From NCBI GenBank assembly GCA_005191425.1, contig SUPR01000013.1, positions 1 through 32,000 on the forward strand: a stretch of DNA of 32,000 nt, written 5' to 3'. The notes under the pieces were generated by a model. That model was not told the origin of the DNA, did not search any database, and saw only the letters and a program-made list of their open reading frames with translations. Shown here piece after piece: positions 4,772 to 8,762 of the stretch. The DNA comes from Candidatus Helarchaeota ASGARD archaeon Hel_GB_B (GTDB lineage Archaea > Asgardarchaeota > Lokiarchaeia > Helarchaeales > HEL-GB-B). The translations under genes and the position numbers were made by a program. The stretch's first letter is position 1. Each line of letters starts with the position of its first letter.

Positions 4772-5329
4772 ATGGGTAGTAAATTGAAAGACGATGATTT
4801 TTTAGATATGCGGAAATTTGTAGATGATATATCTATTAATATGGATGATTATATCAAAATAAATTTTTTAACGCCTTATCAATTAAAAATTAAAAGCGAT
4901 GCAATATTTGAAGAATTACCATTATTTAAGAACACATCAAGTCCCAGATCTTATGATTGGAGCAAAAGGGTTGATGAAGAATTAGAAATTTTTGAGATTT
5001 TAAAACAAAAATATAGATATTCGGTTGGATATTTAGTATTTGATGATTTAAAGAAAAGACTCGGCAATGATAGAGTCTGGGAAACTAACTTTTATTTTTC
5101 TAGGGATTCTAGACCGTTAAAATTAGAAATAAGATTGTCTTTAATGTACCCAAGGCAAATTCCTTTAGTTAGTCGCTCAACTGGTGATTATCATGTCACG
5201 CTTACAGACAAATGTTTCGGATTACTTGAGCGACGTTGGCGTTCTGATGGAAAATATGGACTACCTCATTTTTGTACTATGATTGGTTATTATTATGCAC
5301 TAGAAAAAATGAGTAGAATTATTGATTAA
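4772..5329 (+). CDS. E2/UBC-like protein A
   Basis: Helix-1 motif KRVDEELE, then LEIRLSLMYPRQIP, and C148 in KCFGLLERRW matching the E2 pattern YP..P...C...L...W. No HPN motif. Paralogous to 8229-8762 and 7341-8171. Confidence 0.75.
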   Translation: MGSKLKDDDFLDMRKFVDDISINMDDYIKINFLTPYQLKIKSDAIFEELPLFKNTSSPRSYDWSKRVDEELEIFEILKQKYRYSVGYLVFDDLKKRLGNDRVWETNFYFSRDSRPLKLEIRLSLMYPRQIPLVSRSTGDYHVTLTDKCFGLLERRWRSDGKYGLPHFCTMIGYYYALEKMSRIID

Positions 5330-5351
5330 TTAATAATAAGGGATATATATC

Positions 5352-6413
5352 TTGAAAAATAAGAAATTTTGGTCATCTAAAAAAAATATTGATAGAATTC
5401 AAGATAATTATGATGATTTGGATTATGAAGAAAAACCATTAGTCACTCATATTATACTTCCAACTAAATTATGGCTGAAAGCACTTGAAGAAGGGCGTAA
5501 AACTTCAAATGAAGTTGGTTTTTTTATCATTGGGTTATTTAAAGGTAAAATTTGTTATGTTTATAACTTAATTGAGTTTGATTATATTGAACAATCAGGC
5601 GCTTTTATAGAATCTGGCGTCAAACGATTAGCAAGAATAAGGGCTGGGCTCCCTGTTGGGCTAAAAATTGTAGGTAATATGCATAAACACCCTGGATTTC
5701 TTGGATACAGCGGTACTGATAAAAGAGATTATTTAAAATATGGTGCCATGTCATCTCAAAATGCTTTTTTAATTTATATAGTTGAACCTTATGATGGAAT
5801 TGCAGGTTATACTGCAACAGAATCTAAAATTCATAAAATTGAAGTTGATATCAGAGATTTAGACCCTGATGAAATGTTGATTGAAAAAAATATTTCACTT
5901 CAAGTCAATTTTCCAATGGTAGTTCAAAAATCTGATTATATAAAAAGTATAAGGTTTAAATTAATTGACCAATTAAGTTCTGAAATATTGAAAAACTTTT
6001 CTCGAGGTAATCTAGTCGATAATGATGATTTTATACTCCCCGGTATGCTTACTGGAGCTGAAATTAGTGATAATTTAAAATTAAATCCAAAAATCCCTTT
6101 GTTTATTAAAAATATTGGAATAAATAAAGAAATGATTTTTCGGATTTTTATGGAACCTGAGAATACTTTAAATGATTTAAAAGAAATATTACTTGATATG
6201 ACTAAAATAAGCGATTATGATATTTCAAAAATTCAATTTTATGAAAATAATAAATTAGTCCCTAGTTATACTAAAATATCCAAAATTAACTCTGTTTTAG
6301 ATTGGAAAATCGAGTTATTACCTTTAAAAAAATTCAAATTAACATCTTTTAAGGATTTATTTGATATTATTATTAATTACTATATCTCTATAATTTATAA
6401 ATGGGTTGATTAA
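5352..6413 (+). CDS. JAB/MPN+ (JAMM) metalloprotease with C-terminal ubiquitin-like domain
   Basis: E54 (NEVG) and H111-K-H113-x6-S120-x2-D123. Residues ~248-324 align by eye with ubiquitin. TTG start. Confidence 0.85.
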   Translation: MKNKKFWSSKKNIDRIQDNYDDLDYEEKPLVTHIILPTKLWLKALEEGRKTSNEVGFFIIGLFKGKICYVYNLIEFDYIEQSGAFIESGVKRLARIRAGLPVGLKIVGNMHKHPGFLGYSGTDKRDYLKYGAMSSQNAFLIYIVEPYDGIAGYTATESKIHKIEVDIRDLDPDEMLIEKNISLQVNFPMVVQKSDYIKSIRFKLIDQLSSEILKNFSRGNLVDNDDFILPGMLTGAEISDNLKLNPKIPLFIKNIGINKEMIFRIFMEPENTLNDLKEILLDMTKISDYDISKIQFYENNKLVPSYTKISKINSVLDWKIELLPLKKFKLTSFKDLFDIIINYYISIIYKWVD

Positions 6414-7235
6414 ATGTTATTACCTATTGAAGAACGCGAAGAACTTGCACTTAATATGCCTAAAATATTTTCTCGAGTAATTTTTGCGGGTTATGATATA
6501 AGAAAATTTCTAAATACTACTGTATTCATTGCAGGTGCAGGTGGACTTGGAAGAATAGTTGCCGACATTTTAAATCGTTCTGGATTTGGTAAATTTATAA
6601 TAGTAGACAAAGATATTATAGAAGAGGAGAATTTAAATAGGATGAACCATAGTGAAGAAGATATAGGAAAAAATAAAGCCGAATCTCTCGCCAACTTCCT
6701 TGAACGTACCAGAAACCTTCCTAATATTGATAAAAAATTTTATGTCAAAACAGAATGGTATCAAGCAAATGTCATTGCGTGGGAAAAATTAGAAGAGATG
6801 ATTAAAAAATCGGACATTATTTTCACATGTTTCGATAATGAAGCTGCAAGAATTGAAGTGAATTTATTTGCTGTCCTTGAAAAAAAAATCCTTATAGATG
6901 GTGGAACTTCTGAAAATGCACTTAGGGGCATAATTAATAATGTAATTCCTGGTAAAACTCCTTGTTTAGAGTGTTATTATAGTCCAAACACTTTAATTGA
7001 CATTCAATCCGATGATCCAAAATTGCTTATTCCAAAAATTCCATGTGGGGCAAGTTTAGCAACAACAATGAATATAACTGGTAGCATTCAAGCTGACCAA
7101 GGAATAAAACTAATATTAAATGAGCCAATCCATTCACAAATTAGATTTTCATTAGAAAGAGAAATATCATTACAATATTTTGATTTTGATCCTAGACCAA
7201 ATTGTGAAGCATGTGGGAATCTAAATAATAAATAA
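6414..7235 (+). CDS. ThiF/MoeB-type E1-like activating enzyme
   Basis: GAGGLG, DKD..EENLNR, K in GKNKAE, D in TCFDN, two CxxC Zn pairs (PCLEC, NCEAC), putative catalytic Cys in KIPCGAS. ATG directly follows the JAB stop codon. Confidence 0.92.
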   Translation: MLLPIEEREELALNMPKIFSRVIFAGYDIRKFLNTTVFIAGAGGLGRIVADILNRSGFGKFIIVDKDIIEEENLNRMNHSEEDIGKNKAESLANFLERTRNLPNIDKKFYVKTEWYQANVIAWEKLEEMIKKSDIIFTCFDNEAARIEVNLFAVLEKKILIDGGTSENALRGIINNVIPGKTPCLECYYSPNTLIDIQSDDPKLLIPKIPCGASLATTMNITGSIQADQGIKLILNEPIHSQIRFSLEREISLQYFDFDPRPNCEACGNLNNK

Positions 7236-7340
7236 ATTTTTTATTTGTTTACCTTCAAATATCTATATTTTTTTATAAGTACCGTATTTTTAATTTGATT
7301 AGAAAAATGAGCAATTTCTTATAAATTAAATTACTTTAAA

Positions 7341-8171
7341 TTAATAAAAATGAATATTAATGGCTCTGGGCTTGGCTAAATTTATTTCTATCTGCGTGGA
7401 ATTTGCTATTGAAGTATAATAACCAAGTAATTGTATAAAATGCGCGATTCCCATTCTTCCATCAGACCTCCATCTGTTTTTCAAAATTCCAAAACATGCA
7501 TTTTTGTGTTCTCCGGCTGGACTAAACCATTTCCCAAAATAATATCCATCAGCTACTGGCATTACAAATGGATAATGTAGACTTAATCTAAGGTCGAATA
7601 CAACTCCATGAAATGAGCATTTAAATATTCTATCACTATTTGCCTGTTTATATATACTAAAACTGGAAAATTCTTCGCGTAATTTATATAAATAATTCAA
7701 TTTATTATATTCCTCTTGGAGTCTGTCCAACCAGTTTGGTGATGTCGGTTTTGCAACTATATTAAATAATGGAATTTCTCTTGAAATCAAATTATGATTT
7801 AATGATTTCTGAGGCTCTTTTTTTATTTTGGTTAATTTTCCAAGTAATAAATCTATTTTTAACCCAATTTCGTCCAAAATTTTAATAAAATATAAAAGTA
7901 TTCCCAACTTTTGTTGCGTCCTAAGAATTACTATACTATTCATAGATGTTTTAAAGAGCATTACTCCTGAAACATTTTGAATATAATAATAATCACCAAT
8001 TGCAAATGACAAACCTCTCTTATTAATAAAGTTAGAGAGAGCTGTCAAAAATTTTCCAAAACTTATATCTGAATATTTAATATTGCCTTGAACATCAGAA
8101 ATTACAACCTCTACATTAGTCCAAGGTGCCATTACAGACTTTATTTCGGTCGCAATATCTGAAAAATTCAT
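7341..8171 (-). CDS. Roadblock/LC7-like N-terminal domain fused to E2/UBC-like domain C
   Basis: Residues 1-112 show an alpha-beta-beta-alpha-beta-beta-beta-alpha pattern (VVISDVQGNIKYS ... LGILL). The C-terminal half has DRLQEE, LRLSLHYPFVMP and NACFGILKNRW...GIAHF. Confidence 0.7.
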   Translation of the reverse strand: MNFSDIATEIKSVMAPWTNVEVVISDVQGNIKYSDISFGKFLTALSNFINKRGLSFAIGDYYYIQNVSGVMLFKTSMNSIVILRTQQKLGILLYFIKILDEIGLKIDLLLGKLTKIKKEPQKSLNHNLISREIPLFNIVAKPTSPNWLDRLQEEYNKLNYLYKLREEFSSFSIYKQANSDRIFKCSFHGVVFDLRLSLHYPFVMPVADGYYFGKWFSPAGEHKNACFGILKNRWRSDGRMGIAHFIQLLGYYTSIANSTQIEINLAKPRAINIHFY

Positions 8172-8228
8172 ATTTTTTAACCCAAATTTGTAATTTTTAA
8201 AAATTTAACACATCTCAAAAATATGTAT

Positions 8229-8762
8229 CTATCTAGGAGTTTTTACTGAATGTAATGCAAGCGCAATATATGAACCAAGCATTCCAACAAAATGAGCTAT
8301 ACCCATTCTTCCTGTCTTATCCCATTTATCATATATCTTGCCCAGACATGCTGAACGAATACCGTTTCCACTTGGGAATGCCCAATACCCAATGGAAAAA
8401 TCTGCTATTGGTGGTTGTTTCGGATATCTAACGGGTATCCGAATTGGTATATCTATTTTTTTTCCTTTTATTTTACTTATACAATGGAATACTCTATTAT
8501 TATTTGGATCAATTATTATATCTTCAAAAAAAATCTTATCTTTTCCAAATTTCTTTAATACCTCAATTTTTTCAAATTCCTCTTTTAACCTCTTTTCATA
8601 GTTTTTTCCGATACCATCAGTAATCCTAAAATTTGGTATCTTGTGTATCCAGTTCCAATATCCTACTACTGGCCCTAATGAAATGTTAAAATCAATATCA
8701 TCCATTAATGTATTATATTTTTTCATAAAATAAAAAGTTGATTTAATTATTAAAAATTCCAA
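8229..8762 (-). CDS. E2/UBC-like protein B
   Basis: KRLKEEFE, IPIRIPVRYPKQPP, SACLGKIYDKW...GIAHF. True start is probably the ATG at 8726. Confidence 0.78.
   Translation of the reverse strand: MEFLIIKSTFYFMKKYNTLMDDIDFNISLGPVVGYWNWIHKIPNFRITDGIGKNYEKRLKEEFEKIEVLKKFGKDKIFFEDIIIDPNNNRVFHCISKIKGKKIDIPIRIPVRYPKQPPIADFSIGYWAFPSGNGIRSACLGKIYDKWDKTGRMGIAHFVGMLGSYIALALHSVKTPR

Follow-up and report, generated by a model that had tools for sequence, protein, structure and literature searches.

Of the ubiquitin-like pathways, UFMylation is one that is less well understood, and there is debate about where it originated. The present study concerns five adjacent genes (positions 4772 to 8762) of the Asgard archaeon Candidatus Helarchaeota Hel_GB_B (Helarchaeales; assembly GCA_005191425.1), which lie within the 32,000-nucleotide stretch that was analysed, here called the window (contig SUPR01000013.1, positions 1 to 32,000, forward strand). 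With a probability of roughly 80%, we read these genes as encoding the enzymes of a UFM1-type conjugation pathway in an archaeon.

In excerpts, Picchianti et al. 2023 (PMC10183829) place UFM1, C53, UFC1 and UFSP2 in eukaryotes only, report UBA5 homologues in archaea and bacteria, trace UBA5 to bacteria, and derive UFL1 and DDRGK1 from Asgard archaea. Asgard homologues of UFL1 and DDRGK1 are described both there and in passages of a preprint by Liu et al. 2020 (10.1101/2020.10.19.343400). Ufm1 homologues recognised by structure in nine Asgard clades are reported in excerpts of Koestlbacher et al. 2026 (PMC12962969); the same excerpts make no mention of UFC1, UBA5, JAB, neighbourhood or synteny, and the enzymes that would go with the Ufm1 fold are unreported in them. 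As far as their excerpts extend, these Asgard papers cover the modifier or the E3-like domains alone, and passages of other Asgard surveys mention the UFL1 domain only. A full-text literature search, with most subscription journals outside its reach, found no description of archaeal UFC1 homologues or of the operon described below. In the present data, operon structure and a nearly perfectly matching phyletic profile connect an Asgard modifier with a UBA5-like E1, UFC1-like E2s and a JAMM protease.

Enzymes encoded at the locus

The five open reading frames lie where the original prediction, made from the window's sequence, had placed them, with gaps of 22, 0 and 57 nt as it had given them. 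On the + strand, the UFC1-like E2A (4772..5329; 185 aa; candidate catalytic Cys148 at codon 5213-5215) is followed by a JAMM/MPN+ metalloprotease with a C-terminal ubiquitin-like (Ubl) domain, hereafter the JAB protein (5352..6413; 353 aa; TTG start), and by a UBA5-like E1 made up of the adenylation domain only (6414..7235; 273 aa). On the - strand lie the UFC1-like E2B (8229..8762; 177 aa as first annotated; candidate catalytic Cys139 at 8346-8348) and E2C (7341..8171; 276 aa), in which an N-terminal domain precedes a UFC1-like E2 domain. For E2B, a start at the MDD codon at 8705, which gives 158 aa, is more likely than one at the TTG at 8762, and its orthologues start at MDD. The catalytic residues are kept in all five proteins, as had been claimed, and are invariant across orthologues.

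E2A, E2B and E2C are paralogues with 27-34% identity. They share the pattern R..EE ... YP...P ... C.G.....W...G..G..HF....G.Y, the Cys of which (E2A C148, E2B C139, E2C C226) does not vary among 23 sequences drawn from several Asgard lineages. As single proteins, each stayed under the Pfam UFC1 cut-off: E2A matched RWD (0.071), E2C matched UFC1 (0.016), and E2B gave no family or chance-level matches. When a profile of the three paralogue families was searched against the PDB, UFC1 was found at 5e-8 over its full length, including the N-terminal segment, with the E2 Cys opposite the UFC1 'KICL'; canonical UBC matches appeared only from 4.6e-4. A 23-sequence E2 profile found 82 proteins among 1.84 billion representatives. 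Pfam was run on 80 of them and assigned UFC1 to 41 (best 6.6e-85), RWD to 9 and UQ_con to 7, and the three UFC1-matching library proteins that were looked up were named eukaryotic UFC1 (salmonid, plant and oxymonad). In hhalign comparisons the E2s aligned with named eukaryotic UFC1 at 98.4% (E 7.5e-15, 131 columns) and with the UBC matches at 87% (E 3.9e-6, 88 columns). On these profile comparisons the E2s are best classed as UFC1-type, closer to UFC1 than to canonical UBC. The genome has exactly three UFC1-like E2 genes, none of them outside this locus. Eukaryotic UFC1 formed one clade (support 98) in a quick tree, sister to an archaeal group (support 90, which is under the tool's 95% mark), and E2B and E2C were closer to each other than to E2A.

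The E2 domain of E2C comprises residues ~125-276, with the candidate catalytic Cys226 at 7494-7496. The preceding ~125 residues (7797-8171) had been labelled a roadblock domain; this label found no confirmation, as the segment has no Pfam match at E <= 10 and its hhalign probability against the 12 best Robl_LC7 domains of the same genome was at most 0.5%. A search of the ESM Atlas with E2C returned nothing. Among the relatives surveyed, the E2C-type fusion was found only in the window's own family, and E2B orthologues often carried a basic C-terminal tail. Other domain combinations were also seen. UFC1-like E2 domains are fused to HEAT repeats in L036:7942-9138 (G127:C11) and in P0066, two of the 80 library matches carry Ras/Roc/Arf GTPase domains and one a Robl_LC7 domain, and the sister Helarchaeales loci L041 and L042 encode an E2 whose N-terminal domain differs from that of E2C.

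The E1 matched Pfam ThiF at 7e-40, and its best solved relative in a PDB profile search was UBA5 (1.7e-22, 83 bits), followed by MccB (2e-14) and MoeB (7e-11). The alignment spans the whole UBA5 adenylation domain. The GAGGLG from residue 41 (starting at 6534) lies opposite the UBA5 nucleotide site, and the Zn pairs C184-x2-C187 (6963-6974) and C264-x2-C267 (7203-7214) lie opposite the UBA5 Zn sites. The candidate catalytic Cys211 (7044-7046) sits in CGASLATTM, which aligned with CAASLPTTM of UBA5. The motif C-x-A-S-(L/I)-x-T-T-M and a longer preceding loop are kept in all ~48 Asgard E1 orthologue clusters, and the next-best ThiF/MoeB proteins have neither. In a word-index search with the E1, Asgard orthologues came first and generic ThiF/MoeB proteins next, and eukaryotic UBA5 was not in the top 120; it is thus the PDB ranking and the active-site motif that speak for orthology between the E1 and UBA5. 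By these features the protein appears to be a UBA5-type E1, with the catalytic Cys inside the adenylation domain and a Zn site.

In the JAB protein, the JAMM residues are E54 (5511-5513) and H111-x-H113...S120-x2-D123 (5682-5720). All five hold without exception in 11 orthologues, with identities as low as 25%, and the HxH-x6-S spacing is one residue less than in AfJAMM as aligned. Single-sequence Pfam searches gave no family or chance-level matches, and a profile of 7 close orthologues found nothing in the PDB. A wider profile had AfJAMM at the top with a marginal E of 0.028 and the motif in register, and the Caldiarchaeum Rpn11-like protein came next (E 0.44-0.88). The N-terminal domain aligned by hhalign with Pfam-verified JAB domains of the same genome (88.8%, E 2.5e-6, 105 columns), again with the motif in register. 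The ESM Atlas returned JAB-family clusters at 0.79-0.82, which are leads only, and held no stored structures. This JAB type is present as a sole copy in the genome, and its close relatives come from Helarchaeota and Lokiarchaeota metagenome-assembled genomes (MAGs). No match to the UfSP family Peptidase_C78 (PF07910) was found at E <= 1 in the same genome, which is 93.7% complete.

The Ubl domain that had been proposed on the JAB protein is real. It is one domain, residues ~245-325 (6087-6317), of which residues 248-320 model as a beta-grasp with a predicted local distance difference test (pLDDT) of 60-86; VIA-align against Ubl domains gave Z 10 and a root-mean-square deviation (rmsd) of 1.7-2.4 Å over 72-76 residues. 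It had also been offered as a possible source of the modifier, a role for which it was set aside. Since a helical tail follows the domain and no conserved Gly lies beyond the beta-grasp, it is unlikely to be the modifier and is better seen as an integral domain than as a conjugatable tag. The JAB orthologues L031:7383-8813 (Jordarchaeia), L032:9558-10643 (Njordarchaeales) and L035:4345-5466 (Helarchaeales) have long, partly coiled-coil C-terminal extensions, and all three end in Gly (...GEG, ...MRG and ...RYG); the window protein ends ...KWVD.

A UFM1-like protein outside the window

The original prediction had noted neither an E3 nor a free Ubl at the locus. Neither is present inside the window, but the genome encodes the cognate Ubl and a UFL1-like protein on another contig, C160, in line with the alternative it had left open, that the modifier is encoded elsewhere. 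The Ubl was found via synteny. A small gene lies directly upstream of E2A in sister Helarchaeales families, in the same operon as the enzymes, and its orthologue in the present genome (P0013; G000:C160:55384-55665) is 76% identical, encoding 93 aa that end in ...GTPDQLG-FR. The 25 Ubl orthologues are 40-90% identical; the JAB protein of these lineages is less conserved. PD(Q/M)LG is kept in all 25; the Gly is the last residue in 13, and the other 12 have variable extensions beyond it, mostly of one or two residues. A scan of genome contigs with the Ubl by narrow patterns gave 5 loci, all Helarchaeota-like.

The Ubl has no Pfam family and is without a match to Pfam Ufm1 (PF03671), and the Pfam Ufm1 and UFC1 models gave no useful matches against the whole genome in six frames. 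Among sequence searches, the relationship to UFM1 and UFC1 is visible only with profiles made from the archaeal families. The structural model of the Ubl had a pLDDT of 90. With this model, Foldseek returned UFM1 in 29 of the 30 top Swiss-Prot rows and 11 of the 12 top PDB rows (TM 0.65-0.83, rmsd 1.8-4.9 Å); the top 50 PDB rows held a single MoaD-type entry, a molybdopterin synthase at rank 45. In fold the protein is UFM1-like, and its single C-terminal Gly is covered by two further residues. It probably belongs to the Asgard Ufm1 homologues that were recognised by structure (PMC12962969).

On the same contig, 34 kb from the Ufm1-like gene and likewise unlinked to the locus, a 723-aa protein is encoded (C160:19223-21394; L044:5224-7395, - strand). 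It matched Pfam PCI, E3_UFM1_ligase (42 bits; cut-off 23.2) and DDRGK (28.1 bits; cut-off 27.8), and has a Cys-rich N-terminal segment; repeats of the winged-helix type are, however, common among proteins. It is a candidate UFL1-like scaffold and fits the reported Asgard UFL1/DDRGK1 domains. A second open reading frame of 805 aa on C104 (L045:4841-7258) had weaker UFL1/DDRGK matches.

Occurrence of the genes in other Asgard archaea

Within the window's family, the five genes are kept together in three related contigs, in one of which the downstream neighbours differ, and likewise in another genome belonging to the genus. According to gene calls, a fourth related contig (the Logan contig of P0012) has the same order with an extra 113-aa gene between E1 and E2C. 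Three other Helarchaeales contigs carry a co-linear operon Ubl-E2A-JAB-E1-E2B, of which E2B is the last gene. In Hel_GB_A, the Ubl-E2A-JAB-E1-E2B operon stands beside EF-2, and the lone Ubl gene of the present genome is also near EF-2; the presence of EF-2 near both suggests that the window's family split an ancestral operon. Outside Helarchaeales, the order is Ubl-E2-JAB-E1-E2 in a Jordarchaeia/Freyarchaeota genome and JAB-E1-E2-Ubl in a Njordarchaeales genome, where the Ubl, recognised by hhalign at 94%, ends LLG-DDF. The original prediction of a self-contained E1/E2/JAB conjugation module with parallel E2 paralogues in an Asgard archaeon is, at the level of sequence, supported, and the genes are co-conserved, all five of them in the window's family and as operons in other Asgard lineages.

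A phyletic profile was taken over 400 Asgard genomes with Ubl, JAB and E2 profiles. The Ubl was found in 20 genomes. These 20 were also the ones with strong JAB matches, and 17 of them had the E2; none of the three profiles matched in the remaining Asgard genomes, including 135 of one large family. In 17 of these 20 genomes, no more than 3.3 kb separates the Ubl gene from the JAB gene.

Three further occurrences were observed. Locus L055, on a 105.8-kb contig (DATKTP010000204.1), has the whole Ubl-E2A-JAB-E1-E2B operon, and its Ubl shares 77% identity with that of the present genome; this contig, filed under the bacterial MAG Candidatus Deferrimicrobium sp., is probably a mis-binned Asgard contig. 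Njordarchaeales-type genomes G285-G296 (families f24 and f25; e.g. G287:C138:6339-7100) have a second, minimal pair, in which a Ufm1-like Ubl gene is immediately followed by a JAB match with a shorter open frame (243-302 aa); it is separate from the JAB-E1-E2-Ubl operon. In Jordarchaeia, a 253-aa protein with HEAT repeats and a Pfam ubiquitin match (5.9e-10) is encoded three genes downstream of the second E2 (L031:13316-14077).

Genes around the locus

The G+C content of the window is 20-34%. Among sequencing runs, the DNA carriers of the locus are hydrothermal-vent and marine-sediment metagenomes, and the sequencing-run search listed no RNA runs carrying it. The flanking genes are ordinary cellular ones: cupin, Fe-alcohol dehydrogenase (Fe-ADH), AAA ATPase, SMC with ScpB, eRF1, MoaE, and RuBisCO with an IF-2B-family gene.

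The AAA+ ATPase gene (8911..10593, + strand, 560 aa) is divergent from E2B and overlaps the start of SMC. Its product matched Pfam AAA at 1.3e-20 and was far under the cut-offs of the NCBIfam CdvC, PAN and CDC48 models. The AAA gene adjoins E2B in five Helarchaeales loci and lies downstream of E2B on the same strand in L035 (after a short gap) and in L040/L056; it is missing at L001 (Helarchaeota) and at the Jord and Njord loci. The gene may have a link with the conjugation system, with SMC or with the two together. The overlapped SMC gene (10593-14117) is followed by a gene for a 232-aa protein (14120-14818), without a Pfam match and, judged by position, a possible ScpA, and then by ScpB (14828-15325).

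At 20055-22305 of the window, on the - strand, a RuBisCO large-subunit homologue (424 aa) is encoded beside an IF-2B-family protein (322 aa). Such a pair is characteristic of the archaeal AMP/ribose-1,5-bisphosphate pathway and is unrelated to the conjugation locus.

Discussion

The mechanism proposed here is inferred from homology and gene linkage. The modifier would be the 93-aa Ufm1-like protein from G000:C160:55384-55665. The JAMM protease would trim the two residues (FR) after Gly91 and probably also strip the tag from targets, and so take the role held by the cysteine protease UfSP in eukaryotes. The UBA5-like E1, probably a homodimer like other non-canonical E1s, would then adenylate Gly91 and load the tag on Cys211, from which it would pass to the active-site Cys of one E2 (E2A C148, E2B C139 or E2C C226). 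The E2s would modify target lysines, directly or with the UFL1/DDRGK-like winged-helix scaffold (C160:19223-21394). The three E2s probably serve different targets or places, to which the extra N-terminal domain of E2C and the basic tail of E2B orthologues may relate.

The C-terminal extension of UBA5 bears UFM1- and UFC1-binding sequences. No counterpart of this extension was found in the 273-aa E1, whose alignment with UBA5 covers the adenylation domain only and which stops right after that domain, 6 residues past the second CxxC; recruitment of the UFM1-like tag and the E2 must therefore differ from that of UBA5. Speculatively, because the E1 lacks the extension and the JAB gene abuts the E1 gene with zero gap, the Ubl domain fused to the JAMM protease may help to bring in the E1 or the E2s.

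The lack of this extension weighs against assigning the locus to a UFM1-type pathway, as do several other points. In the E2s there is no TAK motif of UFC1, and the segment opposite GKTAKMYRGGKIC is variable in the alignments. Foldseek matched the Ubl to UFM1 with modest E-values (1e-4 to 1e-3), and beta-grasp folds resemble one another. The modifier gene is unlinked to the window locus in this genome, which also has seven further Pfam JAB matches; the pairing of the Ubl with the locus therefore rests on synteny in relatives. The assignment of the JAB protein comes from motif conservation and moderate profile scores. AlphaFold of the whole protein with 7 close orthologues gave a mean pLDDT of 46 with only the Ubl domain usable, so its JAB fold was judged from profiles. 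A co-fold prediction of JAB residues 25-175 with Zn and the Ubl, run without controls, scored 0.00 and is evidence neither way. Every transfer step of the cascade is an inference. Finally, the distribution is patchy (20 of 400 Asgard genomes) and eukaryotic UFC1 is sister to, not nested in, the archaeal group; taken together, these two findings would fit descent in either direction.

A ubiquitin-type system of the Caldiarchaeum/Asgard kind (Ub-E1-E2-RING-Rpn11), in which ubiquitin and the RING E3 were lost or relocated, would explain the presence of the same enzyme classes, E1, E2 and JAMM, and the Caldiarchaeum Rpn11-like protein is among the weak PDB matches of the JAB profile. However, the E2s are without HPN and match UFC1 far better than UBC, the E1 matches UBA5 and not UBA1-type E1s, and the modifier linked to them has one terminal Gly only and a model that resembles UFM1. 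Moreover, no Pfam RING was found in the five proteins, and the surveyed operons of relatives are without genes beyond Ubl, E2, JAB and E1. We consider such an origin of the locus very improbable.

The original prediction had also allowed for a defensive role, and an anti-virus module of the Bil/Bub or CBASS Cap2/Cap3 kind, conjugating a Ubl without an E3, would share with this locus the lack of an E3. PADLOC gave a BilC match for the JAB protein (E 0.0089, 13.6 bits), and its E1-E2 (Cap2) models matched the E1 (best 2e-15) in the generic ThiF region only. Nevertheless, none of the three E2s was matched by PADLOC, the E1 is a protein separate from the E2s, and the locus is without an effector or cyclase gene. 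Around it lie housekeeping genes in conserved synteny (Fe-ADH, SMC/ScpB, eRF1, RuBisCO), which for Fe-ADH, AAA-SMC-ScpB and EF-2 extends across genera. Furthermore, Ubl, E2, JAB and E1 are linked and co-distributed in several Asgard lineages, with their nearest named relatives in the UFM1 pathway. The defensive role thus finds no support here and is less probable still.

Least probable of all is a sulfur-carrier or cofactor adenylyltransferase (ThiF/MoeB with a MoaD/ThiS-like carrier), possibly dual like SAMP/Urm1 and with the E2-like proteins as non-catalytic partners, for although the NCBIfam ThiF, UbaA (SAMP-activating E1) and MoeB models score alike on the E1 (80-83 bits, all far under the cut-offs) and a MoaE gene lies 10 kb off at 17409-17846, the E1 is without a rhodanese domain and has the UBA5-type Cys motif that generic MoeB/ThiF matches lack, three invariant-Cys E2s and a JAMM protease are co-inherited with it, and the structural matches of the Ubl are to UFM1, with a single MoaD-type entry in its top 50 PDB rows.

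For the favoured UFM1-type pathway, an evolutionary scenario can be put forward that we regard as an even bet. The core cascade (Ufm1, UBA5-type E1 and UFC1-type E2) would have been one Asgard operon before eukaryotes, with JAMM as the original Ufm1 protease; eukaryotes would have inherited the cascade, swapped JAMM for UfSP, and added UFM1- and UFC1-binding tails to UBA5. If this is true, UFC1 was no eukaryotic invention, and the three-branch E2 expansion of Helarchaeales is without a eukaryotic counterpart. The origin of the pathway becomes testable through phylogenies of three co-inherited proteins, and the small soluble set should be reconstitutable in vitro. The locus is of high interest for eukaryote origins, and it would offer a minimal system in which to ask what UFM1-type tagging was for before the endoplasmic reticulum existed.

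Comparison with known conjugation systems

Like bacterial Bil/Bub and CBASS Cap2/Cap3, the present operon has no dedicated E3 and pairs a JAB protease with an E1 and an E2. It differs from them in its weak PADLOC similarity (BilC at 13.6 bits), its separate E1 and E2, and its housekeeping context.

The ubiquitin operon of Caldiarchaeum subterraneum (PMC6043591) is likewise an archaeal operon with a Ubl that needs C-terminal trimming, an E1, an E2 and a precursor-processing JAMM protease. In that operon the modifier has a GG end, the E2 is a canonical UBC and a RING E3 is present, whereas the proteins described here are UFM1-type, with no RING and several UFC1-like E2s.

The original prediction had not recognised the architecture from any described system. 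It is nevertheless not unrelated to such systems, as the closest named relatives of the E1, the E2s and the Ubl are UBA5, UFC1 and UFM1, respectively, all of the eukaryotic UFM1 pathway. With that pathway the archaeal set shares a modifier of UFM1-like fold, whose single C-terminal Gly is masked by two residues as in pro-UFM1, and a UBA5-type E1 with the catalytic Cys in the adenylation domain and in the same motif. It also shares E2s that are without HPN and have both the N-terminal segment specific to UFC1 and, beyond the Cys, the W...G(I/L)AH motif. A UFL1/DDRGK-like winged-helix protein encoded in the genome is a candidate for a further common element. Nothing equivalent to the three E2 branches or to the JAMM-Ubl fusion stands among the UFM1 pathway components compared. 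In the archaeon, a JAMM metalloprotease with a fused Ubl stands in place of the UfSP cysteine protease, the E1 lacks the C-terminal extension of UBA5 and the E2s lack the TAK of UFC1. Furthermore, there are three E2 paralogues, one of them fused to an extra domain, where eukaryotes have one E2, and the genes are arranged as an operon in relatives of this archaeon.

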